From an uncultured archaeon (GTDB lineage: Archaea; Asgardarchaeota; Lokiarchaeia; Sigyniarchaeales; SOKP01), in contig CAZOYD010000064.1 of assembly GCA_964583985.1 (NCBI GenBank), positions 1-18,246 of the forward strand: DNA of 18,246 bases. Reading direction: 5' to 3'. The notes under the pieces are model-generated. The model had not been told where the DNA came from, did not search any database, and saw nothing but the letters and a program-made list of their open reading frames with translations. The position numbers and the translations under genes are program-made. Positions 1 through 18,246 of the stretch are shown in pieces. The first letter of the stretch is position 1; every line of letters starts with the position of its first letter.

Positions 1-76
1 TTTAAATAAAGTTATACTTGATATTTCAATAGAAATTGAAGATATTTTAATTCATATTTTAAATTAAAAAAAAAAT

Positions 77-83
77 GAGGAGG
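77..83 (+). promoter_or_regulatory. Shine-Dalgarno site of tpiA (GAGGAGG)
   Basis: GAGGAGG at 77-83, 5 nt upstream of the ATG at 89, in an otherwise A/T-rich leader. Confidence 0.75.
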
Positions 84-88
84 CACGC

Positions 89-856
89 ATGCGGAAACCT
101 ATAATTGGAGGAAATTGGAAAATGAATTTAGGAGTCCCTTCTGAAGCCGTAGGGATGCTAAAAAGCATGAGATCTATGGTAAAGAATATCGAAGATGTTG
201 ACATTTTTGTCGCACCACCTTTTACCGCTCTTGAATCTGCTATTAGTATCGTGAAGAAATCTAACATTAAAGTTGCAGCCCAAAACATGTATTTTAAAGA
301 AAATGGAGCATTCACAGGTGAAATTTCTCCAAAATTCTTAAAAAATATGGGCATTGAATATGTAATTCTTGGTCATAGTGAAAGAAGGAATATCTTTAAT
401 GAAACTGACGAAATAGTAAATCAAAAAATAAAAATAGCATTATCAATGGATATGTTTCCAATTGTATGTATTGGTGAACATCTTCAACAAAGAGAAGAAG
501 GTAAAACAAAGGAAGTTATAGCATATCAGATGGAAAACACATTTAAAGATATTAGGAAAGAAGACATGATTAAAATAATAATAGCTTATGAGCCAATATG
601 GGCTATTGGCACGGGAGTAACAGCTACGCCTGAACAGGCAGAAGAAATTCATTCCTATATACGATCATTATTGGTTAATAGATTTGATGAAGGAGTGGCT
701 AATAAAGTAAGAATTCAGTACGGAGGATCAATTAAACCGGATAATGCAGAAGCAATTTTTTCTAAACCCAATATTGATGGTGGTTTAGTTGGAGGAGCTT
801 CATTAGAAGCTAAAAGCTTTTATGAGATAATTAAATCTGCGGAAAAAATAAAATGA
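89..856 (+). CDS. tpiA: Triosephosphate isomerase, bacterial/eukaryotic-type (255 aa)
   Basis: Motifs GGNWKMN (catalytic Lys), GAFTGEIS, ILGHSERR (catalytic His), AYEPIWAIGTG (catalytic Glu, loop 6), YGGSIKP and DGGLVGGASL. The ~255 aa length matches the long bacterial type rather than the ~225 aa archaeal type. Confidence 0.98.
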   Translation: MRKPIIGGNWKMNLGVPSEAVGMLKSMRSMVKNIEDVDIFVAPPFTALESAISIVKKSNIKVAAQNMYFKENGAFTGEISPKFLKNMGIEYVILGHSERRNIFNETDEIVNQKIKIALSMDMFPIVCIGEHLQQREEGKTKEVIAYQMENTFKDIRKEDMIKIIIAYEPIWAIGTGVTATPEQAEEIHSYIRSLLVNRFDEGVANKVRIQYGGSIKPDNAEAIFSKPNIDGGLVGGASLEAKSFYEIIKSAEKIK

Positions 857-874
857 TCAAAATCAGGATAGTGT

Positions 875-1735
875 TCATCCTAATAATTGATTAAATGCTG
901 TCGTTAATTTACTTGGAAATTCTCCCATATAGGATTGTGGTTTGGTTATTAAGAGATAAAAATATGGTTCAAATAAACCATCGATAGTTGGACCGACTCC
1001 GGATTTAACAATATAAACCCAAACAGGTTTATTAGCTGAATAAAAAGATTGCCTATATATCCACTCTAGGGGGCTTATTTCTGGAAATACATCTATATTC
1101 CTCAGTAATGAATCAATATCTTTAATCTCCAACTTTTCTCCAAATATCATTATTGGGGAAAGATCAAAAGTAGTAATACAGATGGAAAGTAAGCCATAAT
1201 TTGCCATTTCACTAAAAAATGAAAGAGATAATTTATCGAGTTCGTTCTTGCAATTCATTACACGTGATCTTGCATTAAAATCAGTCAGAACTTCTAAAAT
1301 CTTATCTTCTTCATTTTGTAATATCTCCAATGCGGTTACCAAAGGTATTTTTGGAGCAATATATATATCATAAATCAATTCAATTTTTGCTTTTATAGAA
1401 TCATGTAAAAGGTAGGTTTCTGTTTGAGTTGTAATCAACACATCACCTTTATTTTTTAACTTATTACCTTTCTGTGTTGATTTCCAATCAGAAGAAAACT
1501 CAATTTTTTCGATCTTCTTATCAATATTTTTGGCAAATTCATATAATGCTGATACTAACCCAGCATTTAATTCAAACAAACCCGTGGGATCTATATTAAA
1601 ATTTTGATCCGTGATATTAGTTGAAAAATCAAAAAACCTTAAATATAAATTTACACCTTCAGGAGGCTTTTTTAATTCTATATGATAATAAGGAAAGCCT
1701 GTATTCGTGATTACTGAAAGTTCATAGAATGTCAT
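875..1735 (-). CDS. Hypothetical protein, putative longin-like N-terminal domain plus possible roadblock-like C-terminal domain (286 aa)
   Basis: Clean 286-aa ORF. N-terminal 'ELSVITNTGFPYY' followed by 'LNAGLVSALYEFAK' resembles the beta1-beta2/alpha1 pattern of longin-like domains common in Asgard archaea. The C-terminal half (YGLLSICITTFDLSPI...FYLLITKPQSYMGEF) has a roadblock/profilin-like pattern. Domain calls are by eye only. Confidence 0.55.
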   Translation of the reverse strand: MTFYELSVITNTGFPYYHIELKKPPEGVNLYLRFFDFSTNITDQNFNIDPTGLFELNAGLVSALYEFAKNIDKKIEKIEFSSDWKSTQKGNKLKNKGDVLITTQTETYLLHDSIKAKIELIYDIYIAPKIPLVTALEILQNEEDKILEVLTDFNARSRVMNCKNELDKLSLSFFSEMANYGLLSICITTFDLSPIMIFGEKLEIKDIDSLLRNIDVFPEISPLEWIYRQSFYSANKPVWVYIVKSGVGPTIDGLFEPYFYLLITKPQSYMGEFPSKLTTAFNQLLG

Positions 1736-1853
1736 GATAAAAAAGAATGAGTCATTTTTCGGTTATAATAGTTTTTTAACTCATCTTATTATATGATTAA
1801 AACACATCTATTTAAATTAAATGAGTTAATATCAGCGTGATAAATTGGATACA

Positions 1854-4694
1854 TTATTTTATTATAATTGCTGGTCTCCCCGGTAAAGCTTGTTTTGCTT
1901 TTGGTTCCTCGGTTTTTTCTTCATCGATTATTTTGATATTACAATTATATCTTTTTTTTAGAATGGGAATAATTTCCATAAAGAATTCCAGTTCTTCCAG
2001 TGCGTTGATTGGTGCTTTATTGATTTTCCCCAGATTTTTCATCAGATTATTGACAATTTTAATTATCAATTTACTATGGGGCTTGAACTCTTCATTAGTC
2101 ATGAGAATTTTAATGATCTCTTTTTGTTCCTTGGTTTTTGTAACAATATCCATAAATTGTGAGTACAAGTGAAACTTCCATTGAACAGCCGTAATTAGTA
2201 TAATTTCAGTAACTCTTTCTTTTTTAATAATTAAAAGGATATGATTAATTGCATCAAATGTATCATGTAAAAGAGTCCACTTATAATCATTTATCGGAGT
2301 GAGGAGGGTTTCATCATATTCTGGCCATTTCGCTAAACTTAAAAATCCTTTTTTTCCATTAATTTGCCATAATTCTTCAGTCACGTGAGGAATTATTGGG
2401 TGTAACATTAAAATGAGGCTAATTTTACACGTTTTAAATATGGTGTCATTTACCCCTTCAACCTTGTATTTGTTTAATTCAGAAGCCAATTGGATTAGTT
2501 CGTTTATAGCATCTCTAATTTCTATTTTTTCCATGCGGGAAGATACAGTTTTTATTGTTTTATTCAGGTAATATTCAATGAGTCTATCGCGTATTTTTAC
2601 TTCTTTTCTTGTATCTTCAGGATTATCATAAATTAAAGAATATATGTTTTTTACAAATTTATAGGCAAAATCAACTCCTTCATTTGACCATTCTAATCCA
2701 GATTTTGGGCTTGCACCAAATAATATAAAAAACCGTGAAGCGTCTGCTCCATACTTTTCCATAATTCCAACGGGATCAATGGTATTACCTAAACTCTTGC
2801 TCATTTTTACGCTTTTTAAAATATACTCATTACCACATCTTTTGCATTTTTTATCGTGCATTTCTGCTTTCATGGCGAAAACACCACAATCTGGACAATA
2901 AGGATGGGCTTTATTAATCATTCCTTGGGTAAGCAACCTTTGAAAAGGTTCATCAAAAGAATGCATTCCTATGTCTCGTGCAACTTTTGTGAAGAATCTT
3001 GCATAAAGCAAATGTAATATTGCATGTTCAACTCCACCTATATACTGATCAACATTCATCCAATAATTTGCTATTTTTTTTGTATAAGGTAAATCTTTAG
3101 AATGGGGATCGCAAAATCTAAAAAAATACCAGGAACTATCTACAAAAGTATCCATCGTGTCCGTTTCTCTTTTAGCGGGTTTGTTACATTTTGGACATTG
3201 AACATTTAAAAAGCTTGTACTTGTTATTAAAGGATTTCCCTTTCCTGTAAATTCAACATCTTCGGGTAATTCTACAGGAAGTTGATCATAAGGCACTGGT
3301 AAAATTCCGCAATTATCGCAATAAATAATTGGTATTGGGCAACCCCAATATCGCTGCCTTGAAATTAACCAATCTCTCAGTCTGTAGTTAACTGTATTCA
3401 TTCCCATCTCTAATTCTTCGAGCTTTAATGTAATTGCTTTCATTGCATTTTTATTATCGATTCCATCAAACTCTTTAGAATTAACCAAAATGCCTTCGCC
3501 CTCATATGCACGAGTCATTTTGGTTATATTTATCTCATAATCAAACGGTTGAATGACAATTTTAATGGGGATGTTGTATTCACTTGCGAACTCAAAATCG
3601 CGCTGATCATGAGCAGGAACAGCCATTACCGCACCCGCGCCATATTCAAAAATCACGAAATTCCCCACATAAATCGGAATTTCATCATTAGTAAGAGGAT
3701 TAATAGCATTCTTCCCTATATACATCCCTTTTTTCTCAATTTCAATGTTAGTGCGTTCAAATTTATCTTGTTTTTGTACTTCTTGATAAAATTTGTCAAA
3801 TTCATTTTCATATTTTGTATTTATAACCCATTCTCTTATCCATGGATGTTCTGGAGCGAAAACCATAAAAGTTACTCCGAACAGAGTATCTGGTCTTGTA
3901 GTAAAGATATCAATTGTCCGTTCTTCACCAACAATTGGAAATTTAATTATAGTTCCTTCAGATCTTCCAATCCAATTTTTCTGCATAATTTTTACTTTTT
4001 CAGGCCAATCTAGGGTGTTTAATCCATCTAGTAATTCCTCTGCGTAGTTTCGTATCTTTAAAAACCATTGAGTAAGAAATTTTTGATCAACATCACTGTT
4101 ACATCTCCAACATTTCCCATTTAGTACTTGTTCATTCGCTAAAACCGTAGAGCAATCTGGACACCAGTTAACATATGATTCTTGACGATAGGCTAATCCT
4201 TTTTCAAGCATCTTAATAAAGAACCATTGATCCCATTTCTATTCATTAATGGAACTCATTAACAATTTATAGTAGTTTGGATCATGGCTGTAAATCATTC
4301 TAGTCCAATCATAAGACAAACCAATTCTTTTTTGTTGTTCCTGCATTTTTTTTATGTTTTTATTGGTCCAATCCTCGGGATTAGCACTATGATCAATAGC
4401 TGCGTTTTCTGCGGGTAATCCAAAGCTTTTATGGTATTTCCCACATTGAGAAATACTATCATAGCCCATAGGATATAATACATTATACCCGTTCATTCGT
4501 TTAAATCGAGCTACTGAATCTCCTATTGTATAATTTCGAAGGTGCCCCATATGTAAACTTCCAGAAGGATATGGATACATTTCTAAGATATAATATTTTT
4601 TCATATTTGGATCTTCTTTAACTTCAAAAATCCGTTTATCATTCCACAAATCTTGCCATTTCTTCTCAATTAATTTATGATCATATTCTATCAT
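1854..4694 (-). CDS. leuS: Leucyl-tRNA synthetase, intron-containing: complement(join(1854..4236,4267..4427,4458..4694)), 926 aa after splicing
   Basis: ORFs 4239..4694 and 1854..4211 are in the same frame and separated by one TAG. Motifs: [14 protein letters not shown] (HIGH), [15 protein letters not shown]1 CPDC...CWRC, CP1 editing FTTRPDT and [60 protein letters not shown] (2793-2807). Removing the two 30-nt BHB inserts gives 237+161+2383 = 2781 nt of uninterrupted frame. Confidence 0.95.
4237..4266 (-). other. BHB-type intron 2 in leuS mRNA, 30 nt, contains the in-frame UAG
   Basis: mRNA CUA-CUAU-AA^A-UUGUUAAUG-AGUUC-CAUUAAUGA-AUAG-AA^A-UGG. Exon helix CUA/UGG, 4-bp central helix CUAU/AUAG, two AAA bulges, 9-bp intron stem with a 5-nt loop. 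Excision converts [16 protein letters not shown] to YYKWDQW. Confidence 0.92.
4428..4457 (-). other. BHB-type (tRNA-splicing-endonuclease) intron 1 in leuS mRNA, 30 nt, in-frame, no stop
   Basis: mRNA GGGC-UAUG-AU^A-GUAUUUCUCA-AUG-UGGGAAAUAC-CAUA-AA^A-GCUU. Exon helix GGGC/GCUU, 4-bp central helix UAUG/CAUA, 3-nt bulges AUA and AAA, 10-bp intron stem with a 3-nt loop. Excision converts [18 protein letters not shown] to GYDSFGLP. Confidence 0.9.
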
Positions 4695-4760
4695 AATAAT
4701 CTACCGAAAGCTCTTTACTTTTCAAATAATTGATAAAATTAATCTTTTACTAATAAAATA

Positions 4761-4783
4761 TTATGGTCATTTTATAACCATAA
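4761..4783. promoter_or_regulatory. Imperfect palindrome in the divergent leuS/lipS2 intergenic region, possible operator
   Basis: TTATGGTCAT-TTT-ATAACCATAA: 10-bp arms with one mismatch, overlapping a TTTTATAA TATA-like octamer, about 67 nt upstream of the leuS start. Confidence 0.3.
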
Positions 4784-4937
4784 AATGTTGTTCTTCATAA
4801 TTTTTATTTTTTGGACATCTTAGCATTTATCTTTAAAGTGTTAAATAAACTCATTGCAATAGTTATATCATTTTTTTTTTGATCGTATGAGAATTCTCAG
4901 AAAAAAACTTATCTTTTCAAAATCATTAGGAAATTTA

Positions 4938-5939
4938 ATGACGATAGATAAAATTAGAGTATCAATCGGGAGTGCTTCAGTTCTTGGACTTTATGACACT
5001 ATACGATTCAAAGATCCTCCAACTACTTGCTATATCATGACTTATAAACAAGGCCATTGCGATGCAAATTGTGGTTTCTGTCCACAAGCGAGAGAGTCGG
5101 TGGGATCTACTGAAAAACTTTCTCGTGTCAATTGGCCAGAATTTTCTTTTAAGGATTTTCTTACGAGGTTGAGTTATCTAGTACCAAATAAACGTTTCAA
5201 GAGAATATGCATTCAAACTCTTAATTATTCCAATAACTTTCACGAATTACTTGAAATTATTTCAGAAATTACCAGAATAACCGATATACCTATTTCTGTA
5301 GCAAGCCCTCCTATCACAAAAGAAAATATGCGGGAATTAAAAAATTTGGGGATCGATAGAATTGGGATTGCATTAGATGCTTCAACACAAGAAATATTTA
5401 ATAATGTGAAAGGAAAAAATGCAAATGGGCCTTATTCATGGGAGAAACATTTTGCATCTTTAGAAGATGCTTTAAATGTATTCAATGATGGGAAAGTAAC
5501 AACTCACTTAATTGTTGGACTGGGTGAAACTTCAAAAGAGATTTTAGAATTAATCCAAAAATTAAACGATCTGAAAATTCATATAGGTCTTTTTGCTTTT
5601 ACTCCTATTAAGGGAACAAAGCTTGAAAATCTAGATAGTCCAGAATTATTATATTTCCGAAAAATGCAATTAGGATTATACCTCATTATCAAGCAAAATA
5701 AACGCTTAAAAGATTTTACATTTAATTCTAAGGGTGATATTGTTAAATATAATATTAATAAAAAAGAATTATGGGATATTATTGATACTTCAAATGTCAT
5801 GTTAACTTCAGGATGTCCTGGATGTAATCGACCCTATTATACCTCACGCCCTTCAGGACCAATTTATAATTACCCAAGAGAGTTAACCGAAATTGAGAAA
5901 CAGGAAAATTATAATGCTTTATTAAAATTTGTTAATTAA
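4938..5939 (+). CDS. lipS2: Radical SAM sulfur-insertion protein of the archaeal-type two-component lipoyl synthase (LipS2-like)
   Basis: CxxxCxxC (CDANCGFC) and the C-terminal TSGCPGCNRP motif, matching the TxGCPxC(N/D)RP signature of LipS2. Adjacent to a lipoate ligase and a LipS1-like gene. Start placed at ATG 4938 (MTIDKIRVSIGS); the ORF track's upstream ATG at 4887 is also possible. Confidence 0.85.
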   Translation: MTIDKIRVSIGSASVLGLYDTIRFKDPPTTCYIMTYKQGHCDANCGFCPQARESVGSTEKLSRVNWPEFSFKDFLTRLSYLVPNKRFKRICIQTLNYSNNFHELLEIISEITRITDIPISVASPPITKENMRELKNLGIDRIGIALDASTQEIFNNVKGKNANGPYSWEKHFASLEDALNVFNDGKVTTHLIVGLGETSKEILELIQKLNDLKIHIGLFAFTPIKGTKLENLDSPELLYFRKMQLGLYLIIKQNKRLKDFTFNSKGDIVKYNINKKELWDIIDTSNVMLTSGCPGCNRPYYTSRPSGPIYNYPRELTEIEKQENYNALLKFVN

Positions 5940-5956
5940 TTGTAATTTACACCATC

Positions 5957-6736
5957 ATGAATGATTGGAGATTTATCCCTTTAGAAATTTATAATGGTTA
6001 TTGGAACATGGCTTTGGACGAGGCGATATTAACATTATCAATAGAAAATAAATCTCCAAACACTTTAAGATTTTATAAATGGGATCCCTCGACAATTTCA
6101 ATAGGACAAAATCAAAGCCTTTCTTCAGAAGTTGATATTGATATCGCTCAAAATAAAGGGTTTGACGTAGTTAGAAGAATCACAGGAGGTGGCGCTGTAT
6201 TTCATGATAGGGATCGAGAAATAACTTATTCCATTATCTGTCCTATCAAATTATTAGAGGAGTTGCATGCTTATAGAGTACTTGAACAATTTGAGATTAT
6301 TGAAATGGGAATAATCTCTGGTTTAAAGAATTATGGTTTAGAATCAGAACCTGGAATCATACATTGCCCTGCTCTTTTTCTAGAAGGTAAAAAATTTTCT
6401 GGAAATGCCCAAATAAGAAAAAAGGGATATATTCTTCAACATGGTACCATCTTACTAGAATTAAATGCAGAACTCATGTATTCCGTCTTAAAAGCGCCAA
6501 ATAATGTATCTAAATCAAGAATGGTTAAATCTGTCTATACAAAATGCATTGGAATAAAAGGGCACTTACCTGATTGGAACGAAGATAAATTTTTATTATC
6601 GTTAAAACAAGGGTTTGAAAATACTTTGAAAATTAAATTAAAAGAGGGGCAAATTTCTGAAGAGGAAATTAAATTAGCCAAAAAGTTAATGAAAGAGAAA
6701 TATTCAAATGAAAAATGGTTAAAAAAATATGAATGA
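5957..6736 (+). CDS. lplA: Lipoate-protein ligase / octanoyltransferase catalytic domain (LplA/LipM family, 259 aa)
   Basis: NMALDEA, LRFYKW, VVRRITGGGAVFHD, KKFSGNAQ and LQHGTIL motifs of the BPL/LplA/LipB fold. No C-terminal accessory domain. Confidence 0.9.
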   Translation: MNDWRFIPLEIYNGYWNMALDEAILTLSIENKSPNTLRFYKWDPSTISIGQNQSLSSEVDIDIAQNKGFDVVRRITGGGAVFHDRDREITYSIICPIKLLEELHAYRVLEQFEIIEMGIISGLKNYGLESEPGIIHCPALFLEGKKFSGNAQIRKKGYILQHGTILLELNAELMYSVLKAPNNVSKSRMVKSVYTKCIGIKGHLPDWNEDKFLLSLKQGFENTLKIKLKEGQISEEEIKLAKKLMKEKYSNEKWLKKYE

Positions 6737-7787
6737 GAGTATAATAACGAAAATAACAGAAAATCGAATGAAATGGTCAGATTATGAAGAAATCGTTTCA
6801 GATAACTTCCAACAGATTGATTCTATCTTAAAAATTGCATATAACTTGAAAGTACAATTTTTTGGTGAACGTTTAAAAGTATACGTTCCAAATTATAATT
6901 TTCCTGCTATTAGTATAACTGGGAGTGATTGTAACTTAAACTGTGAACACTGTAATAAAAAATATCTAGAAAATATGAAACCCCTCCTCACTAATAGTGA
7001 ATTAAAAGATTTTTTAATCAATCTTCATAAGAACGGTGGTGTGGGAGCTTTGATTTCAGGAGGGTGTGATCCTAATGGTGCTGTACCTTTAAAACAGTTT
7101 TTAAATACTATTGAAGAAGTCAAACAACAAACTGATTTAATAATCAATCTTCATACTGGTTTAATTGATGAAGATACTGCTTGCGATTTAAAAGAGACTA
7201 CAGCAGATATTATATCTTTCGATATTAATATTGATGAGAAAATAATAAAAAATATATACCACCTTGATAAAACAGTAGAAGATTACAGAAAATCATTGGA
7301 ACTTCTTCAAAAAAATCATCTGAATATAATTCCCCATATTTGTTTTGGATTGTATTATGGAAAAATTCACGAAGAATTAAAATCAATTAAATTTATTAAA
7401 GAAAATTTTCCTAATCCCTCTTTAATCGTAGTAATTGTACTTATTCCTCCAAAAGACTCAAAATTTGAGACTCCAAAACCTGAGGATATTTCCAAATTAA
7501 TAGCGGTAACAAGATTGGTATTTCCTCAGACTGAAATTTCCTTAGGATGCATGAGACCTCGTGGAAGTCTAAAAAGGGAGATTGAACAATTAGCTTTAAA
7601 AGCAGGAATTACAAGAATTGAAATCCCCTCTAAGGCTACTTTACAATGGATGAAGAAATATGATCCAAATGTTTCATTCGAGTTTTATTCTGCTTGTTGT
7701 GCTATACCCGAAAAATATGAAAGGAAAGCCATAAGTAGAGAGGAAGATATAAAATCATATAAATTATTTTTAAGTGGTGAAAAATAG
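6729..7787 (+). CDS. lipS1: Radical SAM protein of the archaeal-type two-component lipoyl synthase (LipS1-like, 352 aa)
   Basis: CxxxCxxC (CNLNCEHC), LISGG, LGCMRP (GC(M/A)R motif) and C-terminal SACCA (CC motif). Overlaps the ligase stop codon by 8 nt. Confidence 0.85.
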   Translation: MNESIITKITENRMKWSDYEEIVSDNFQQIDSILKIAYNLKVQFFGERLKVYVPNYNFPAISITGSDCNLNCEHCNKKYLENMKPLLTNSELKDFLINLHKNGGVGALISGGCDPNGAVPLKQFLNTIEEVKQQTDLIINLHTGLIDEDTACDLKETTADIISFDINIDEKIIKNIYHLDKTVEDYRKSLELLQKNHLNIIPHICFGLYYGKIHEELKSIKFIKENFPNPSLIVVIVLIPPKDSKFETPKPEDISKLIAVTRLVFPQTEISLGCMRPRGSLKREIEQLALKAGITRIEIPSKATLQWMKKYDPNVSFEFYSACCAIPEKYERKAISREEDIKSYKLFLSGEK

Positions 7788-7789
7788 AT

Positions 7790-9199
7790 TTGAGTGAATT
7801 TATTAATCTAATTGCATTAAAAGGAATACCAAAAATAAAACCGGGAGATAATTTAGCAAAGATCATAATTGAATCTGCAAATAAATCAAATATAATTTTA
7901 GAAGAAGGGAATATACTTGTTATTGCTCAAAGTATTGTTTCAAAAAGTCGTGGTTACCTAGTCGATCTAAATACAATTGAGCCCAGCGATTATGCTAAAA
8001 TGTTATATAAGAGTATGATACCTTTAGCAATGAAGGAAAATATTCCTGTGAAAGATCCGCAATTAATACAATTAATTTTAGATGAATCAAATAAATTGAT
8101 TCGAACAAGCCACGTTATGATTGTTGAGACAAAACATGGATTTATTTGTGCCAATGCAGGAATTGATAGATCAAATGTAGAAGGAGAAAATATTGTAACT
8201 TTATTACCGGATAATTCTGATGAAGAAGCAAAGAAAATTACTGACGAACTCAAGAAAATAATTGGGAAAAATTTAGCGGTTATTATTTCAGATTCATTTG
8301 GAAGACCTTTTAGAAGGGGTGCTGTTGGAGTGGCAATAGGACTTTCAGGGATAGATGCAATATTGGATAAGAGAGGTAAATATGATCTTTATGGGAAAGA
8401 ATTGAAAAGCACGATCGTTGGACAAGTAGATAATCTTGCTTCTGCTGCTCAACTCATAATGGGGGAAGCAGATGAGGGATACCCCGTTGTATTAATTAAG
8501 GGATATGAGTTTGAATTAAATGATCAGGCATCTATTAGTTCCATTATACGTGAAAGAAATTCAGATTTATTTAGAGAGAAAGATAGCGATAATGAGATTA
8601 TAAAAACACTAAAGTCAAGGAGGAGTTATAAGTTAGGTTTTTCTTCTAGAGAAGTAGATGAAGAGCTTATTAGAGAATGTATAAACTTATCAACCTGGGC
8701 TCCAAGTGCTCATAATGGACAATTTTGGAGATATGTAATTTTAAAGAAAGGTGCTAGAAGAAATAAATTAATAGAGAGGATGAATGCAAAATTCAGGAAC
8801 GATTTAATAAGTGAAGGTCAATCAGAATCGATCATCAATTTAAAGATTGAAAAAACACGAAATCAATTCTTAAATTCACCTCATTTGATATTACTTTGTT
8901 TGGATAAGCAAGATTTAGAATCATATGAAGATGAAGAACGCAATTTAAATGAATTAATTATGGGAATTCAGAGTATAAGTTCTTCTGCAACTTATTTACT
9001 AATAGCCTTAGAAACTAAAAATTTGTCTTCTTGTTGGTATTGTGCACCATTATTTGCTAAGGAAATTATCAAGGAAGAATTAAATCTTCCAAAATCATAT
9101 GTTCCTATGGCTTTTTTTACAATAGGATATCCCAAAGATGTTCCAAAAACACCGTTTCGCAAGAATTTAGAGGATATTATTTACAAAATTGAAGATTAA
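7790..9199 (+). CDS. cofE: Coenzyme F420-0:gamma-glutamyl ligase fused to a C-terminal nitroreductase-fold domain (FbiB-like architecture, 469 aa)
   Basis: N-terminal CofE motifs (IPKIKPGDNL, IVSKS, HGFICANAGIDRSN, ISDSFGRPFRRG, DNLASAAQLIMGEADEGYPVVLIKG). From about 8594 a nitroreductase domain (KSRRSYK, WAPSAHNGQFWRY, SCWYCAP, IGYP). TTG start preceded by GGTGA. Confidence 0.9.
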   Translation: MSEFINLIALKGIPKIKPGDNLAKIIIESANKSNIILEEGNILVIAQSIVSKSRGYLVDLNTIEPSDYAKMLYKSMIPLAMKENIPVKDPQLIQLILDESNKLIRTSHVMIVETKHGFICANAGIDRSNVEGENIVTLLPDNSDEEAKKITDELKKIIGKNLAVIISDSFGRPFRRGAVGVAIGLSGIDAILDKRGKYDLYGKELKSTIVGQVDNLASAAQLIMGEADEGYPVVLIKGYEFELNDQASISSIIRERNSDLFREKDSDNEIIKTLKSRRSYKLGFSSREVDEELIRECINLSTWAPSAHNGQFWRYVILKKGARRNKLIERMNAKFRNDLISEGQSESIINLKIEKTRNQFLNSPHLILLCLDKQDLESYEDEERNLNELIMGIQSISSSATYLLIALETKNLSSCWYCAPLFAKEIIKEELNLPKSYVPMAFFTIGYPKDVPKTPFRKNLEDIIYKIED

Positions 9200-9212
9200 A
9201 TTGAGATTTGAA

Positions 9213-10142
9213 ATGAGTGAAGATTTTTATACTATACTGGCAGGAGGGGTGGGTGCCGCAAAATTTATTCAAGGATTAGTAAAAGTAGTAGATCCAGGCA
9301 AATTAAAAATAATCATAAATACAGGTGATGATATTGAATTATTTGGTCTTACTATTTGTCCAGATATCGATATAATAACATATAGTATTGCGGAAGTCGT
9401 TGATAAGGAAAAAGGGTGGGGTTTTGAAAATGATACTTTCAATTGTTTGAGCATAATAAAAAATTATTATGACGATGGATGGTTTAATTTGGGGGATAAA
9501 GATTTAGCAACACATATTTATCGAACAGATTTATACCGTAAAGGTTTTACAAAAGCTCAAATTACATCTAAAATATGTAAAAAATTAGGAATAAAAGCAG
9601 ATCTCATTCCAATGAGTAATGAATCAGTGGAAACATATATTGAAACTCCCTTGGGGAAAATGCATTTTGAAGAATATTACATAAAACATAAATGTGAGCC
9701 CGATATTTTAGGTATATCCTTCAAGGGTTCTGAAAAAGCTAATCCTATAGTAGGTGTCATAGATTATATCAAAAAGGCAAGAAAAGTAATAATATGCCCA
9801 TCTAATCCAATAGTTTCAATTGGAACAATCCTGAGCGTCAAGGATATAAAAAATACGCTAATAAGTGTAAAGGATAATGTGTATGCCATTAGTCCTATTA
9901 TAGAAGGATCCTCAGTAAAAGGTCCAGCAGATAAAATGTTAAACTTTTTTGGTTATGAGGTTTCATGCGTTGGTGTTGCTAATTTCTACAGGGGAATGAT
10001 AGGTCATTTCATTATTGATCTTAAAGATCAATCATCGAAACAACAGATTGAGGAATTGGGCATAAAGACATATTGTTTTGATACCCTAATGACGAATATA
10101 AAAAAAAAGGAAAATCTGGCGAGAGAAGTGATGAGCCTATGA
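9213..10142 (+). CDS. cofD: 2-phospho-L-lactate/phosphoenolpyruvate transferase (CofD/FbiA), F420 biosynthesis
   Basis: LAGGVGAAKF, NTGDD, ICPDID, GWG, WFNLGDKDLATHIYRT, HFEEYY, ICPSNPIVSIG and VKGPADKM. Start placed at ATG 9213 rather than TTG 9189. Confidence 0.93.
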   Translation: MSEDFYTILAGGVGAAKFIQGLVKVVDPGKLKIIINTGDDIELFGLTICPDIDIITYSIAEVVDKEKGWGFENDTFNCLSIIKNYYDDGWFNLGDKDLATHIYRTDLYRKGFTKAQITSKICKKLGIKADLIPMSNESVETYIETPLGKMHFEEYYIKHKCEPDILGISFKGSEKANPIVGVIDYIKKARKVIICPSNPIVSIGTILSVKDIKNTLISVKDNVYAISPIIEGSSVKGPADKMLNFFGYEVSCVGVANFYRGMIGHFIIDLKDQSSKQQIEELGIKTYCFDTLMTNIKKKENLAREVMSL

Positions 10143-11573
10143 TGATTGAGCTACTGATTCTTCTATTGGAATTTCGTTAATAGTTTCTTCTTTTTTCACG
10201 TAATCTCCTACAGAAGCTAATATATCTTTGATTCTACCCTCTTGTTGCAGACTTATGATTAAATTACGATGTTTTATATAAGAGATGACTTTTGATATAA
10301 CAGGAAATAAAGATACTATCGGCAATAAGAGAATTAAAATTACTTCTGGTGAATACATTGCCACGCTTTCTGTGATTGCTGGTGGTAAATTGAACACATT
10401 CTCAGCGAACCAGTGAGGTTGTATTACAACATAGCTTACTAAAATTAAAATGATAATACGTGAGAAGAAGTTGATTATTGTTGAAAAGGCTAAACTTTGC
10501 AATTTAGGGGAAGAAGTTCTTGCTGTAAGTGTATCACGAGCCTCTGCATCTTCTTTGAATAATTTCTCCACGTATCCCCCTAATCTTCTTGTTTTTGAAG
10601 CTGCAGTGATTAATTTCCTTTCTTCTTCCTCCAATTTTTTCTTTTCAATCATTTCTTTTACGTAAGAAAATCTTTCTTCCATTTTTAAAAGAAATTTATC
10701 CACACTGGTTTTTCCTTCTTTGTCAATTTCATCTTTGCGTATTTTAGCTTCCTCTTTTATTTTATCGACGTTTGCTACAACAAAATGAGATTCACTTTGA
10801 AGGATCTCTAGTTGAGATTCAAGCCTATCTCGTCTCTCCAAGGATGGCTTGGAAACGGTATCAATATAATTAAGTTGAAATGCTAATTCTAGATAAATAT
10901 ATGATACTATAGCTAGTGAAATAACTGGACTCGCTAAAAACTGAAAAAAGTTATCTATGGGAATGACTGAAAACATTGGATCCAAGGGATTGTGAAGCGA
11001 ATTGATGTAAGGATCACTGATATTAAAAAGATCTAACATGTTATTATATCCAAATACCATAAGAGGTACAACAATCATAAGTATTAGAGACCCAACCGCA
11101 AGCATATCGTGTTTCGGATTAGATTGGAAAAAAGCTCTGATCACATAGAATATCGATACAATGAATAGAATTTGAAAAGCAAATAAATAGAAATCTCCAG
11201 TAAAAACAGAGATTTCTGTCCATATGAGGTTGGGGATTTCTATTAAATCGGGTACCGTACCATTGGGAAAATTAAACCATAATCCAAAATAATTACGCAT
11301 AAAATTATCAAGAAAGTCAAACATAAATTGGGGATTCGGAGTAAAGAGAAAGGAAGTCATCCGAATACTTCCTAAAGCTATTATATAAACAAGTCCAAAG
11401 AAGGCATAAGTAATGATATTTCTTATTCCCTCAAAAAAGGCAGCTATAACTAGTTCCCCACTATCAGTTGTGATAACCTCGTCAAAATGAAATACTGAAA
11501 GAAATATTACTAAAATCCAAAAATACATTAAAATTTTAATTATTTTTAACCCTACTAAATAATATCGCGTCAT
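10137..11573 (-). CDS. Hypothetical polytopic membrane protein with a long charged (coiled-coil-like) cytoplasmic insert (478 aa)
   Basis: About 5 N-terminal hydrophobic segments, a ~125-aa E/K/R-rich helical stretch, then 2 further TM segments. Last gene of the MoxR cluster, starting 3 nt after the DUF58 stop. Overlaps the cofD 3' end convergently by 6 nt. Confidence 0.75.
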   Translation of the reverse strand: MTRYYLVGLKIIKILMYFWILVIFLSVFHFDEVITTDSGELVIAAFFEGIRNIITYAFFGLVYIIALGSIRMTSFLFTPNPQFMFDFLDNFMRNYFGLWFNFPNGTVPDLIEIPNLIWTEISVFTGDFYLFAFQILFIVSIFYVIRAFFQSNPKHDMLAVGSLILMIVVPLMVFGYNNMLDLFNISDPYINSLHNPLDPMFSVIPIDNFFQFLASPVISLAIVSYIYLELAFQLNYIDTVSKPSLERRDRLESQLEILQSESHFVVANVDKIKEEAKIRKDEIDKEGKTSVDKFLLKMEERFSYVKEMIEKKKLEEEERKLITAASKTRRLGGYVEKLFKEDAEARDTLTARTSSPKLQSLAFSTIINFFSRIIILILVSYVVIQPHWFAENVFNLPPAITESVAMYSPEVILILLLPIVSLFPVISKVISYIKHRNLIISLQQEGRIKDILASVGDYVKKEETINEIPIEESVAQSS

Positions 11574-11576
11574 TAT

Positions 11577-12905
11577 TTAATATGCACTCCCCTTTTTCTT
11601 TGCATCTATATACGTTTTTAGTACATTTGTCATCATTTCGTCTGGTCCCGTTGTGATGAGACTAATTCCTAAATTACGAAATTCCCGTCTAAGGATTAGT
11701 ATATGTTCCATCATTTCCTCACTTATTGCTTCAGCTAATGCTTTATCTGTAGAGGATAAATCGATTTCATGAATTTCGAACCAAGGGCTAAATGGATTAA
11801 TGACAATAATAGAATGATTAAATGTAACAAGTTTTCTCATTGCTTGTGATATTTCTTTTACATTTCCTTCTAGATCAGATATTAAAAATATTAAACTCCT
11901 TTTTTGAAACCGTCTAACGAAGTAATCGATAGCTTCAACAATTCTACTCTTTCCTTGAGGTTTTATCCTAGCAACAAAATCTAGAACTTGATAAAAATGA
12001 TCATCTCCGCTTCCTGGTTTTAAAAATTGCAGATTTTTCTTATCTGAATATGAAAATATTCCTACGTTGTCTCTTCGTGTGAGAGCAACTTTGGTTAATA
12101 ACATGCATGATCGAATGGCATATTCAAATTTTGTGTTTTCTATCGCGCCTCCAGCCATGCTATTAGATGAATCAACTAAAATCATAACAGTTACGTCTCG
12201 TTCACTTTCAAATTCCCTCACTATTAATTTTTGAGTCCGTGCACTTGCCTTCCAGTCAATTAATCGAAATTGATCCCCAAAAACATACTTTCTCATTGCA
12301 TGAAATTCGGATCCAAGACCTATTTGTTTCGATCTTTGTATGCCATAATTTAACTGAAGAGAGCGTTTGGATCCAAGAATTTCAATTCTTTTTATATCTT
12401 CATATGGAGGATATATTAAGATATCTGAAACACTATCAGGGATTATTCTTTCAACAGAATTAAATCCTAATCGATCTTTAATGGTTACCGAAAGTGGTCC
12501 AAGGGGATATTCTCCTCGTACTTTGGGTTCAAGAACATAAGAGAATTTAATTAATGCTCTAGGACCTATACGTGTAGATATGAAATTTTCGCCAAGTACT
12601 AATCGAAAAAGTTGAGGATTATAATAATCTCTAATTTCTATGAGGTCAAAACTACCTTTTCCTGTGTTCTTAATTATGACCTTTATATGAACAAAATCAT
12701 CTTTAAATACCTTTTCTTTCTCAAGTTCTCTATGGACTTGTAATTCTTCTATGTTCATTTGCCAATAAAAAAGCGGTAAGCTAATAATAGTACTAAATAA
12801 TAAGAGAATTGCAAAGAAAATAAAAAAGTAATTTACAAATGCAAATCCCGCAGTTAGGAAGAAAACTGCGAATAAAATCAATGTTCTACCTTTTCCACCT
12901 AGCAT
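11577..12905 (-). CDS. DUF58 family protein with vWA (MIDAS) domain and N-terminal membrane anchor (442 aa)
   Basis: N-terminal TM pair, RGEYPLGP...DRLG, GSEFHAMRKYVFGDQFRLIDWKASAR...LIVREFESE, MIDAS DSSNS, and LIFLISDL. Directly downstream of moxR. Confidence 0.9.
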   Translation of the reverse strand: MLGGKGRTLILFAVFFLTAGFAFVNYFFIFFAILLLFSTIISLPLFYWQMNIEELQVHRELEKEKVFKDDFVHIKVIIKNTGKGSFDLIEIRDYYNPQLFRLVLGENFISTRIGPRALIKFSYVLEPKVRGEYPLGPLSVTIKDRLGFNSVERIIPDSVSDILIYPPYEDIKRIEILGSKRSLQLNYGIQRSKQIGLGSEFHAMRKYVFGDQFRLIDWKASARTQKLIVREFESERDVTVMILVDSSNSMAGGAIENTKFEYAIRSCMLLTKVALTRRDNVGIFSYSDKKNLQFLKPGSGDDHFYQVLDFVARIKPQGKSRIVEAIDYFVRRFQKRSLIFLISDLEGNVKEISQAMRKLVTFNHSIIVINPFSPWFEIHEIDLSSTDKALAEAISEEMMEHILILRREFRNLGISLITTGPDEMMTNVLKTYIDAKKKGSAY

Positions 12906-12985
12906 TTACATCTCCAACATGGAATTTAAGATTTTACCGCTTTTCAATTGAATTACATTATTTTATTATTTTTTTAAAAAAAAAT

Positions 12986-13966
12986 TTAAATTGGAACTGG
13001 AATATCTTCTACTATTGATCGAAGCACCGATTTTGCATCTAAACCTTCAAGTTCACTTTCTGCTTTTAACATTATTCGATGGTTAAGAGCAGGTATGATG
13101 AGGGCTCTAACATCATCCGGTGTGACATAAGTACGTCCAAGAATTGCTGCTCGTGCTTTAGCGGTTTTCATTATCGTAAGTGAGGCTCGAGGTCCACACC
13201 CTAATGCAATTTGTGGATGATTTCGTGTTTTAATTATTATGTCCCTAACATATTTCAGGATTCTTTCATCAATATAGACCAGATTCATAATTTTTTGAGC
13301 TGCCAACAGTTCTTCAGCATTGGTGATGACATCTAGTGAGGGCATATCTCCTGATATTTGTCTCCTCATAATTTCTACCTCTTCATCTATTTCGGGATAA
13401 TCTAGCCAAAGTTTAAATAAGAAACGGTCTATTTGTGCTTCTGGTAAGGGGTAAGTACCTTCCATTTCAACGGGGTTCTCTGTTGCAATGACAATAAAAG
13501 GTTTAACTAATTCAAGCGTTTGACCTTCAATAGTTACTTGTCGTTCAGCCATAGCTTCTAAAAGTGCTGATTGAGTTTTTGGAGCACTTCTATTTATTTC
13601 ATCAGCTAGTACAACATTGGCAAAAATCGGACCTTTTTGAAGGACAAATGCACCTTCATTCTGATCAAATATTTTTGTACCTGTTATATCAGAAGGTAAT
13701 AAATCGGGGGTAAATTGAACGCGTTTGAAAGAGATCCCTAAAGTTTTGGCAAAAGATTTAGCCATGACAGTTTTACCCAAACCTGGAACACCTTCAAGGA
13801 GAACGTGTCCATTAACCAAGAGAGCTATGAAAAGTTGCTGAAGAATTTCTCCATTACCGACAATCACTCGACTTACTTCACTTAAAACCTCTTGTGCTAT
13901 TGATCTAATAGAACTTACATCCAATTCTTCTCTTTCATAATACTTTGCTTTATCTGGAGCTTCCAT
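12986..13966 (-). CDS. moxR: MoxR family AAA+ ATPase (326 aa)
   Basis: Walker A GVPGLGKT, RVQFTPDLLPSDITG, Walker B VLADEINR, QSALLEAMAERQVT and NPVEMEGTYPLPEAQIDRF. Confidence 0.96.
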   Translation of the reverse strand: MEAPDKAKYYEREELDVSSIRSIAQEVLSEVSRVIVGNGEILQQLFIALLVNGHVLLEGVPGLGKTVMAKSFAKTLGISFKRVQFTPDLLPSDITGTKIFDQNEGAFVLQKGPIFANVVLADEINRSAPKTQSALLEAMAERQVTIEGQTLELVKPFIVIATENPVEMEGTYPLPEAQIDRFLFKLWLDYPEIDEEVEIMRRQISGDMPSLDVITNAEELLAAQKIMNLVYIDERILKYVRDIIIKTRNHPQIALGCGPRASLTIMKTAKARAAILGRTYVTPDDVRALIIPALNHRIMLKAESELEGLDAKSVLRSIVEDIPVPI

Positions 13967-14035
13967 TTTAATTCACTTCTTTTTTTTTATTTTTATTAAT
14001 TTGATTTTTAATTATATTTGGTTATCTTAATTTTT

Positions 14036-15769
14036 TTAAATATTCTTTACAACCCATTCCATTTCAAAGAAGAGGTTTTCAAAATCTTCTTCATTCTTGA
14101 CTTTATTTTTGCCTTCTTTTATGAGAATTATTCGATCCATAAATCGACTAATTCTTCTAATTTTTAATTTTGTAATATTTTGTTCTTTATTAATGACCAT
14201 ATCGATAACATTTTTAGTGGTAATCTTTTTCCCTCTCAACAAATTGTTCAATTTTCTTTCAAGTCTCCTGTATAGAAGCGTTAAAGCTTTCCCATAGTTT
14301 TGTTTTTCTCGATACCATTGTATTTTTTCAGCAAAATATGAGGAAGTCCTAAATTTTTCTTGTTCTTCGATCTGATCTTGTTTCTCTTCTTTTTTTTTTT
14401 GTTTTTTATCATCTTTTTTTGGTAAGTATTTTCTTAAGGTATAAATCGCTAATAATGGATAGATCCATGCCGTTATCGGATTTGTTGATAGATGTATAAC
14501 ATATTGAATGATAAATCCATATATTCCTACTGAAGTTAAATCCCTTGAATATTCTGGCCGTATATGAGCTTCATCAAATACCACTACCCAATCTTGTTTG
14601 GGTTGTCCATAGGTTAGCCAATCAATTATATTAATCCCAAATTGTCTATTATCATACAATTCAATTAATTCATTATCAAATAAACTAGCATCAGAAGAAA
14701 CGAATATACGACTATTACCAGTATCTTTTGCCATAAAAACACCTTGAGAATAACCACCTAAAGGCCATCGTGTTGGAAATCCAGGAATCGATGCTGCAAT
14801 GAAGCTAATATCAACATAATCATCTTCAAATTTATACATGTGATCATTATTTTTATCTACATATCCATATTCAGTTGAAGACCCCACTAAATCCCAACCA
14901 AAATAATCAATGAAAGGACCTCCAAGAACAGTTGTTGCTTGTGATAAAATTACTTTATTAATTCCATTTGCTATTGGATGGGTTGTGAATGATTCAATGA
15001 CAGGAAAATCCGTTCTTGTATCATAAGACGCGTTATCTCTTAGTGTACCGCTTGGAAATATGGTTACGGGAATTTTTCCCGCTACATCAGGATCAAGAGC
15101 TCCTGCAATAAATAATTCCCATAATAGAGTGCTCGTACTTCCATGATCATGGCAGATTAATAATGAATTTGTTGTATTGGTATCGAAAAAATTAATGAAA
15201 TAAGGGATTTCGAAGATAGCGTTATAATATTGATTTGGTCCAAGAAGAACTAACAAAATAGATTTATTTAATCGTTCTGTTGCACTCAAACTTGATTGAA
15301 TTGACATTATTTCATATCCTTGTGCTTCTATCGTATTTCGAAATGAAGATGATCCATTCCAATCATAGTTATAGATTGAAAAGTTTTGATCATTCTCACC
15401 GCGATCAAATATCGATCCAAATAATGGGACAAAAAGTAATACGAACACGACTAAAAATAACGCATTCTTGTAGATTGATCCTGTTTTGGCTTTTTTCCTA
15501 GATTGTAATTCTCGTGATTTTTGAACCGTGGTTTTTCTAATGAAAATAAATAATCCTATCCCAGTAAATATTGATGCAATGTAGCATAATAATGGAAAAT
15601 AGTTTATAAAAATCGGAAGATCTGAACCAGGATTATTTTCTTGATAAATAATAACAAAATTTTCAAGAAAAATGCCATAAAATAAGAAGAAGATCACGAA
15701 AAATGAATATAAAATCCCCTTTGATAAATTCACGTTCTTCTCTGACACTTTTCCAACACTTGACATCAT
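14036..15769 (-). CDS. Membrane protein with extracytoplasmic DUF4350/GldG-like domain and basic cytoplasmic C-terminal helical domain (577 aa)
   Basis: Three N-terminal TM segments, FSIYNYDWNGSSSF, SRIFVSSDASLFDN...DNRQF and VVVFDEAH, a C-terminal TM, then Y(x)5A(x)2Y...YRRL. These are typical of DUF4350 proteins found next to MoxR genes. Confidence 0.65.
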   Translation of the reverse strand: MMSSVGKVSEKNVNLSKGILYSFFVIFFLFYGIFLENFVIIYQENNPGSDLPIFINYFPLLCYIASIFTGIGLFIFIRKTTVQKSRELQSRKKAKTGSIYKNALFLVVFVLLFVPLFGSIFDRGENDQNFSIYNYDWNGSSSFRNTIEAQGYEIMSIQSSLSATERLNKSILLVLLGPNQYYNAIFEIPYFINFFDTNTTNSLLICHDHGSTSTLLWELFIAGALDPDVAGKIPVTIFPSGTLRDNASYDTRTDFPVIESFTTHPIANGINKVILSQATTVLGGPFIDYFGWDLVGSSTEYGYVDKNNDHMYKFEDDYVDISFIAASIPGFPTRWPLGGYSQGVFMAKDTGNSRIFVSSDASLFDNELIELYDNRQFGINIIDWLTYGQPKQDWVVVFDEAHIRPEYSRDLTSVGIYGFIIQYVIHLSTNPITAWIYPLLAIYTLRKYLPKKDDKKQKKKEEKQDQIEEQEKFRTSSYFAEKIQWYREKQNYGKALTLLYRRLERKLNNLLRGKKITTKNVIDMVINKEQNITKLKIRRISRFMDRIILIKEGKNKVKNEEDFENLFFEMEWVVKNI

Positions 15770-15820
15770 GTCATCCTACAATATTTTTATTATTATGCTT
15801 CTATTCAAATACCTCTTCAA

Positions 15821-16195
15821 TTAAAAACTCATTGCGGGCAGAGATTTTCCAGTAACTTCATTATATAAAGTGGAAAATAATTGGACGGTAAAATTGATTT
15901 CTTTACTCGTGGGTTCAATTCCACCATAAATGATATCTTCAATTTTTTTTATGAAAGGATATACTGTTTCTGGTTTTTGATCTAATTCATTGACACATGT
16001 TATTGCATATTCTCGTATGGTTTGATGTGCTAAACGTGGCTTTTTAAATTTCAAAGTTATTATATCATTATAAACCAAATAGATATAAGCAATAGCTTCT
16101 TTTGCCCGATGAGATTGAACAAGTACTTTAACATTTTCAAACTTTTGTTGAATATCGACTTCTGATTCAACCATTTTCTTGTTCTTTTTTGCCAT
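15821..16195 (-). CDS. Small soluble DUF4129-like helical protein (124 aa)
   Basis: KEAIAYIY...QTIREYA...FIKKIEDIIYGG pattern. Clearly paralogous to the C-terminal domain of 16247..17794. Confidence 0.7.
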   Translation of the reverse strand: MAKKNKKMVESEVDIQQKFENVKVLVQSHRAKEAIAYIYLVYNDIITLKFKKPRLAHQTIREYAITCVNELDQKPETVYPFIKKIEDIIYGGIEPTSKEINFTVQLFSTLYNEVTGKSLPAMSF

Positions 16196-16246
16196 TTTCT
16201 TTTCCTTTATTTTTTTATTAATTATTTTTTCTATGTATATTTAGAC

Positions 16247-17794: not shown

Positions 17795-17808
17795 AAAATT
17801 ATCACCAA

Positions 17809-18246
17809 TTATCTAAATAATTCTCTTTCTGTATATTCAATATAATAATAATATGGGTCGATATAATTATCTTGAGGATCAAAACTAACCCAGACTTCTG
17901 CATTATTTGGCCAATTTCCAATTAAGATTGAGATATTAAACCACCCAGTTCCGTTAGTAAGACCCGTTGCAGAAATTATGGTAGCTCCATAACTATCTTT
18001 TATCGTGATGGTAATTTCTTTACCAATTATTGCAGTGCCATTATCCCACCTTAAATAACCAAATGCATATAAAGTATCACCTTCATAAAATTGATCCTTA
18101 ACGACTTGCGTATCGTAATTACCAGAAATAATTACTCGTGCGGTTATATTTACTGGAACCGCCATGCTACTAGCATGAATCATGTAATTGCTTAAAGAGA
18201 TTCCCGCTTCGTTTATACTTCCATTAAAATCAATCCTAAAATAATA
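17809..18246 (-). CDS. 3' end of a larger secreted beta-sandwich repeat protein (partial; frame is open to the window edge)
   Basis: Upstream of ATG 18183 the frame continues without a stop (YYFRIDFNGSINEAGISLSNY) to position 18246. It has the same repeat type as the neighbour (LYAFGYLRWDNGT...TNGTGWF). Confidence 0.75.
   Translation of the reverse strand, partial: YYFRIDFNGSINEAGISLSNYMIHASSMAVPVNITARVIISGNYDTQVVKDQFYEGDTLYAFGYLRWDNGTAIIGKEITITIKDSYGATIISATGLTNGTGWFNISILIGNWPNNAEVWVSFDPQDNYIDPYYYYIEYTERELFR

Follow-up and report, generated by a model that had tools for sequence, protein, structure and literature searches.

In eukaryotes, the HAC1 and XBP1 messenger RNAs (mRNAs) are spliced through cleavage by IRE1 and ligation by RtcB (in metazoa) or Trl1, in a regulated event that changes the reading frame, while the palindromic elements of Rickettsia are in-frame hairpin inserts, present in many copies per genome, that are actually translated. 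The archaeal tRNA-splicing endonuclease EndA cuts bulge-helix-bulge (BHB) motifs after the second nucleotide of each bulge, and a BHB intron in the pre-mRNA of cbf5 was reportedly described by Watanabe in 2002 and by Yoshinari in 2006. This intron, residing in a crenarchaeal pseudouridine synthase gene, is a documented BHB intron of an archaeal coding sequence (PMC2738675; Yokobori 2009), and in the literature searched cbf5 is the only archaeal coding sequence for which endonuclease splicing is documented. For Asgard archaea, heavily interrupted tRNA genes are reported in a preprint that reports no mRNA introns (bioRxiv 10.64898/2026.10.13.758758). The window analyzed here, an 18,246-nucleotide (nt) stretch from the genome of an Asgard (Promethearchaeota) archaeon (contig CAZOYD010000064.1, positions 1 to 18,246), carries on its minus strand a gene for a bacterial-type leucyl-tRNA synthetase (LeuRS), and its positions 4428-4457 are, with high probability, an archaeal BHB intron in the pre-mRNA of that gene.

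Open reading frame (ORF) finders return this gene as two pieces, one of 151 amino acids (aa) at 4694..4239 and another of 785 aa at 4211..1854, and a search against Pfam and NCBIfam profiles assigns it to the bacterial type (TIGR00396 leuS_bact, 771 bits, together with the PF13603 editing domain). The 30 nt at 4457..4428 of the minus strand directly follow the codons for YPMGYD, the last residue of which is D79, and read AGT ATT TCT CAA TGT GGG AAA TAC CAT AAA, that is, ten codons in frame and without any stop. When the gene is read as interrupted by two BHB introns, its features are the following, arrows marking the predicted cuts.

4458..4694, minus strand: LeuRS exon 1, 79 codons (M1-D79), HMGH motif included, matched by leuS_bact from profile position 1
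4428..4457, minus strand: putative intron 1, 30-nt BHB, in frame and stop-free in the source genome
4423..4467, minus strand: complete hBHBh' motif of putative intron 1, read from the sequence
4467-4464 with 4426-4423, minus strand: outer helix of putative intron 1, 4 bp, exon-exon
4463-4460 with 4433-4430, minus strand: central helix of putative intron 1, UAUG/CAUA, 4 bp
4459-4457 and 4429-4427, minus strand: bulges of putative intron 1, AU↓A and AA↓A, 3 nt each, on opposite strands
4456-4448 with 4442-4434, minus strand: inner stem of putative intron 1, GUAUUUCUC/GGGAAAUAC, 9 bp, intron-intron, with a 5-nt loop AAUGU
4267..4427, minus strand: LeuRS exon 2, 161 nt
4237..4266, minus strand: putative intron 2, 30-nt BHB, containing the TAG (4241-4239) that ends the 151-aa ORF
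4233..4275, minus strand: hBHBh' motif of putative intron 2, outer helix ACU/UGG of 3 bp, central helix CUAU/AUAG, bulges AA↓A and AA↓A
within 4233..4275, minus strand: inner stem of putative intron 2, 9 bp, loop AGUUC
1854..4236, minus strand: LeuRS exon 3, with the editing domain, KMSKS, the anticodon-binding domain, the archaeal-type C-terminal domain and the stop

As RNA, positions 4467..4423 read GGGC UAUG (AU↓A) GUAUUUCUC-AAUGU-GGGAAAUAC CAUA (AA↓A) GCUU, a 3-4-3 BHB whose outer helix runs from G7-U51 to C10-G48 in the numbering of the fold. Both flanking helices are present, h pairing exon with exon and h' intron with intron, which corresponds to the strict hBHBh' form as defined elsewhere (PMC5829648). 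With both bulges cut after their second nucleotide, exactly 4457..4428 is excised and GAU is joined to AGC. The minimum free energy fold of the region contains that stem together with a symmetric internal loop (-13.7 kcal/mol, z = -2.7), and this is the view in which a preliminary description of the locus had seen the 9-bp inner stem as a nearly perfect 10-bp hairpin; the BHB that it had also proposed is indeed of canonical form, with predicted cuts falling at the very boundaries it gave for the insert.

The second insert, 161 nt downstream of the first, shares its plan (ACU CUAU (AA↓A), a 9-bp stem, AUAG (AA↓A) UGG) and was found independently by a scan combining the BHB motif with ORF rescue, with a score of 32. 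Joining the three exons produces 2781 nt with a single terminal stop, encoding 926 aa, and this spliced product aligns with the intronless orthologues P0126 and P0127 (926 aa) over 926 columns with 0 gaps. Positions 1-130 of the leuS_bact profile are matched by the first piece and positions 130-779 by the second, so that the matches likewise join at position 130 across intron 2. Production of a full-length enzyme in the source genome would thus demand removal of intron 2, with its TAG, in any case.

Homologous copies were then compared in 40 genomes of the same order, every one of which gave a bacterial-type LeuRS match. Most copies read YPMGYD-SFG (or SYG, AFG) with nothing in between, and exactly these 30 nt or 10 aa are missing from 25 or more orthologues of the genus and order and from every LeuRS sequence in the PDB. 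The insert is borne by ten distinct copies, namely those of G000 (the source genome), G009 (on two contigs), G023, G006, G022, a G005 contig, and three metagenome lineages. In-frame TAA or TGA codons occur in the loop of eight of them, the only stop-free copies being those of G000 (TGT) and of the metagenome lineage Ga0307419 (TAC TTA ACG; protein P0008). Thus, at the position where the source genome has TGT GGG, eight of the nine other copies have a variant with a stop in it, for instance TAA G(G/T)G. When the 30 nt are removed, five genes read onward, for ~630 codons each, as open frames to the end of the available sequence.

On average, intron 1 differs by 13% between copies, more in the loop (27%) than where bases are paired (8%). 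Across the ten sequences, 96.5% of 170 pair cells are paired, versus 39-54% in slid controls, with an invariant central helix, an outer helix paired at 100% and an inner stem paired at 93%. Five pairs exhibit one-sided changes compatible with pairing (for example, C-G to U.G and A-U to G.U), and in Ga0307419, to which all double-changed pairs are confined, both partners of two pairs are replaced (C-G by U-A and U.G by G-C), the encoded peptide passing from QCG to YLT and the read-through insert becoming SISYLTKYHK. The preliminary description had stated that a peptide kept without the RNA pairing would speak against an intron; when this was examined, the reverse was found, the pairing being kept among copies most of which carry a stop in the loop.

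The position of the insert within the enzyme adds to this picture. D79 aligns with D80 of Thermus thermophilus LeuRS (1H3N/2V0C), with a clean 10-residue gap at the insert that also appears in the alignment with Escherichia coli LeuRS. In the latter enzyme, Asp80 forms hydrogen bonds to leucine, leucinol, and an adenylate analogue (PMC13454842), and the equivalent D95A mutation in Natrialba LeuRS1 abolishes aminoacylation (PMC4005665). No indel is observed at this motif in PDB LeuRS sequences or in the orthologues (at least 25) mentioned above. Hence, translation and alignments, together with these published data, uphold what had been anticipated in the preliminary description, that is, that ten extra residues follow Asp79 if splicing does not occur, that this residue corresponds to the leucine-binding Asp80 of bacterial LeuRS, and that the motif is free of indels.

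These observations allow the intron to be weighed against a real, translated 10-codon insertion, an exonised former intron sitting beside the active-site Asp in the source genome and in Ga0307419. The insert is in frame and stop-free in these two of ten lineages, and the cutting of the RNA has been deduced rather than observed. On the contrary, the BHB is intact in both stop-free copies, Ga0307419 keeping its pairing by two compensatory changes that alter the peptide, and the two open copies differ in their loop codons while their stems are kept, so that the peptide is not conserved. In addition, the eight remaining copies are untranslatable, the site follows a leucine-binding residue after which no PDB LeuRS or orthologue tolerates an indel, and intron 2 has to be removed anyway if a full-length enzyme is to be made. 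A translated insertion is, consequently, regarded as distinctly unlikely.

The exons of five intron-bearing genes from different species display ratios of nonsynonymous to synonymous substitution (dN/dS) of 0.03-0.12, with proportions of synonymous differences (pS) of 0.30-0.79 that are saturated in most pairs. Intron 1 thus lies in an ORF under purifying selection, and its removal, like that of intron 2, is needed wherever stops are present. The same data bear on the possibility that the gene is a decaying, redundant paralogue in which the inserts are merely disruptive. The genome does contain a second, archaeal-type LeuRS, found as a fragment at a contig end (C55:3-1688, 511 bits), and the bacterial-type gene is formally broken by the TAG of intron 2. 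Nonetheless, decay agrees poorly with the low dN/dS at saturated synonymous sites, with the lack of frameshifts or other stops in a gene whose spliced product is free of gaps over its whole length, and with the persistence of the same inserts in many diverged lineages, in an order in which bacterial-type LeuRS was matched in 40/40 genomes. We therefore consider decay very unlikely, and conservation and low dN/dS argue that the intron-bearing LeuRS is probably functional.

The distribution of the inserts does not follow that of the host gene. In the LeuRS tree, the intron-1 genes of G023, G000, G006, and G022 form a clade with 98/98 support, while G009, with intron 1 as well as intron 2, is placed at the base of an intronless group with 96/95 support. 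A single origin of intron 1 was considered and rejected, since the tree needs at least two changes that are forced by well-supported branches. Intron 2 accompanies intron 1 in G000, G009, and Ga0307419, occurs without it in the P0006-P0012 lineages from metagenomes, and is absent from G006 and G022, the nearest relatives of G000. From this patchy co-occurrence, the two introns would have been gained, lost, or transferred independently of each other, and the misfit with the LeuRS tree suggests repeated loss, lateral gain, or recombination.

Such patchiness, with at least two changes for intron 1 and with intron 2 found with and without it, together with the hairpin nature of the insert, could also be expected from a small palindromic mobile insertion, of the miniature inverted-repeat transposable element (MITE) or Rickettsia-palindromic-element type, tolerated or bypassed by the cell and folding as a BHB only incidentally. 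However, searches of both inserts and their flanks by blastn-short against the 3.8-Mb genome retrieved only their own loci and chance matches of 11-17 nt, and no target-site duplication was found at the inserts. Moreover, both inserts display the exact 3-4-3 geometry using exon sequence, and their stops preclude simple tolerance at the protein level, all of which leaves a mobile element as a highly improbable explanation.

The source genome (3.8 Mb in 138 contigs, 31.7% GC) encodes the machinery that intron removal would require. Two EndA paralogues (PF01974), located in the regions C4:51753-51977 and C3:71349-71597, score 100 and 67 bits; one of them best matches the catalytic subunits of Aeropyrum, Sulfolobus, and Pyrobaculum and is thus alpha-like in the crenarchaeal sense, while the other is divergent, with a weak match to subunit beta. 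Their presence is consistent with the two paralogues forming a heterotetramer, as an (alpha-beta)2 EndA with an L1 loop is described for Asgard archaea (PMC5829648). RtcB is also encoded (557 bits). ARAGORN recognizes only 22 tRNA genes, 13 of which contain introns, in keeping with the interrupted tRNA genes that the preprint cited above reports for Asgard archaea; interruptions probably keep many other tRNA genes from being recognized.

On these grounds, the transcript would fold locally into the hBHBh' motif, built from exon and intron sequence, EndA of the alpha/beta-like type would cut after the second nucleotide of each 3-nt bulge, and RtcB would join the exons, the GAU-AGC junction restoring the LeuRS sequence; intron 2 would be removed by the same route. 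Excision in the cell, and the participation of EndA and RtcB in it, are thus envisaged from the encoded genes and motifs.

Removal at the RNA level may be contrasted with programmed translational bypassing, as in T4 gene 60 or in the byp elements of yeast mitochondria, in which the ribosome would skip the insert. The 30-nt size and the hairpin do resemble bypass elements, and at intron 2 of the source genome AAA both precedes the insert and forms its last codon. Yet at intron 1 take-off and landing codons do not match (GAU or GAC before the insert, AAA or AAG at its end), and at intron 2 the landing codon is AGA in G009 and other lineages (AAA/AGA). Since, in addition, the BHB rule fits both inserts exactly and introns of the tRNA type abound in the genome, bypassing is given hardly any likelihood, the lowest among the explanations contemplated.

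Further genes of the same genome appear interrupted in a similar way. In that for NadE, a 30-nt BHB insert with a stop lies within TKYGD-GG (C85:7886-7915, plus strand; 687-716 of locus L126; score 24), and the exons match Pfam NAD_synthase at 3-143 and 144-242, with the insert located exactly between adjacent profile positions, so that its excision restores the profile. Two other 30-nt BHB inserts, at the top of the ORF-rescue scan, have Pfam domains at either side, one in an AIR-synthase-related gene (C123:4513-4542, minus strand, score 40) and another in a gene with a VWA_CoxE domain (C31:34232-34261, minus strand, score 35). The inserts of the LeuRS, AIR-synthase-like, VWA_CoxE, and NadE genes are all of 30 nt.

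In that scan, which used a relaxed descriptor and accepted only matches whose excision joins two long open frames, 163 matches were obtained versus 139-177 for decoy descriptors with other bulge sizes. At scores of 30 or higher, four matches remained versus 0-1 for decoys, these being LeuRS intron 2, the AIR-synthase-like and VWA_CoxE genes just described, and a 39-nt candidate at C42:7953. A genome-wide scan for in-frame, stop-free BHB inside ORFs, itself insensitive to weak motifs and short exons, showed no clear excess, with 2 matches versus 0-1 for decoys at scores of 36 or higher. The expectation put forward in the preliminary description that stop-free introns of 3n length might be widespread is, thus, not sustained, as the scan shows no excess over decoys and the top candidate other than LeuRS intron 1 is false. 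The class of hidden introns in the source genome is suggested to be small, a modest number of further ones being possible.

Several points weigh against reading 4428-4457 as an intron and must be considered together. (i) The BHB structure on its own is neither rare nor significant in this 32% GC genome and cannot find introns; the strict 3-4-3 descriptor gives 11,448 matches genome-wide versus 10,948-11,366 with decoys whose bulges have 2 or 4 nt, enrichment being slight at every score and no length standing out as a peak, and at scores of 36 or higher there are ~50 matches in the genome, about equal for real and decoy descriptors (~7e-8 per position-and-length pair). (ii) Geometry alone can mislead, since the only in-frame candidate scoring above LeuRS intron 1, a 42-nt in-frame BHB in a membrane-protein gene (C14:40477-40518, minus strand, locus L127, score 39), was rejected as a false positive because every orthologue and paralogue retains it in full, which identifies it as ordinary coding sequence. 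(iii) Covariation statistics are weak, 34 of 500 shuffles reaching the observed number of double-changed pairs, because the ten sequences available are few and very similar. (iv) Recent lateral spread, instead of selection, could explain part of the strong conservation of the intron, whose distribution misfits the LeuRS tree. (v) Because an archaeal-type LeuRS is also present, the bacterial-type enzyme may not be essential or the sole source of Leu-tRNA. (vi) Searches of JGI metagenome contigs for the spliced or unspliced junction pattern retrieved two unspliced copies only, with no spliced contig derived from RNA or cDNA, and protein searches at near and longer lengths retrieved no spliced product of the source species.

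Regarding the first of these points, the significance of both LeuRS introns resides in the coincidence of the BHB cuts with the insert boundaries as defined by orthologues, which amounts to roughly 1e-7 to 1e-6 for each intron. All considered, a BHB intron at 4428-4457 is retained as the strongly favored interpretation.

The 151-aa read-through product is found exactly as such in the NCBI and JGI collections, as is the 785-aa fragment starting at an internal ATG, and P0008, the other stop-free variant, occurs in JGI and Logan data on nine contigs. Gene callers do, thus, translate straight through intron 1, as had been foreseen, because the TGT GGG loop leaves the frame kept and open. An intron that is 3n long and stop-free escapes screens for broken ORFs and introduces false residues into database proteins, and both database entries found here to contain read-through residues have them beside a catalytic residue. 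Since such screens miss introns of this kind, intron counts are minimum values, and such entries contaminate the alignments, structure predictions, and family models that are based on them.

Other features of the gene and its surroundings deserve mention. The LeuRS looks chimeric, in that its second piece matches leuS_bact up to ~residue 647 (profile 130-779 of 843), while its C-terminal ~150 aa (window 1854-2300) match archaeal models only, and do so to the model ends (leuS_arch 614-937, PRK12300 624-946). An arrangement of a bacterial-type body with an archaeal-type C-terminal domain is described for Natrialba magadii LeuRS (PMC4005665). In another Promethearchaeota lineage, protein P0013 (179 aa; NCBI, Logan) is a LeuRS fragment without introns 1 and 2 whose sequence parts from that of every orthologue immediately past NWCPKC and stops after another 17-18 residues, a break that may represent a third intron site in the same gene. 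Adjoining LeuRS, a series of cofactor genes occupies positions 4887-10142 of the plus strand. It comprises genes for two proteins of the radical-SAM type, one of them carrying a BATS domain, a gene resembling those of lipoate-protein ligases, a gene in which F420-0:gamma-glutamyl ligase and a nitroreductase domain are fused, and one for CofD, which gives it the appearance of a cluster for F420 biosynthesis in this Asgard genome.

What makes this locus remarkable is a probable BHB mRNA intron in an Asgard aminoacyl-tRNA synthetase, one of two in its gene, which is invisible to ORF-based detection in the source genome. With two introns in LeuRS and at least three other genes interrupted, endonuclease-mediated mRNA splicing therefore seems to belong to ordinary gene expression in the lineage nearest to eukaryotes, and it may be asked how a cell that lacks a nucleus coordinates such splicing with translation. 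A more far-reaching proposal, resting on their patchy presence among close relatives, their misfit with the gene tree and their occurrence at several sites of one gene, is that BHB mini-introns are regular and mobile elements of Asgard mRNAs. As some of them are in frame and open, spliced and unspliced transcripts would give two proteins, acting as a post-transcriptional switch in which, for example, active LeuRS would be made from the spliced mRNA only. Although this proposal is speculative and rather unlikely, it would imply a form of alternative splicing, independent of a spliceosome, in those archaea that are most closely related to eukaryotes.

Among the known systems, the Rickettsia palindromic elements resemble the LeuRS insert in being short, hairpin-forming, frame-keeping insertions that end up in database proteins, and differ from it in that the LeuRS insert is single-copy, contains stops in most lineages, and has BHB geometry. 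HAC1/XBP1 splicing shares with the route proposed here an endonuclease and a ligase acting on a short mRNA intron with paired stem-loop sites and no spliceosome, whereas its nuclease is IRE1 instead of EndA/Sen, its motif is another one, and the event is regulated and frame-changing. The BHB introns at non-canonical positions of Asgard tRNAs (bioRxiv 10.64898/2026.10.13.758758; PMC5829648) have the same motif, cut positions, and presumed enzymes, as well as a small size and a patchy distribution with repeated gain; the host RNA of the LeuRS introns is, on the contrary, an mRNA, so that removal must restore the frame and compete with translation. Cbf5 offers the parallel of a short, BHB-defined intron in a coding sequence, linked to a hetero-oligomeric endonuclease and gained or lost among close relatives. 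Relative to it, the present case belongs to the Asgard phylum and to a bacterial-type LeuRS with two introns in one gene, both of 30 nt, in a genome where at least three other genes are interrupted likewise; and while splicing of cbf5 has been shown experimentally, that of LeuRS is deduced, for an intron that can, moreover, be read in frame.

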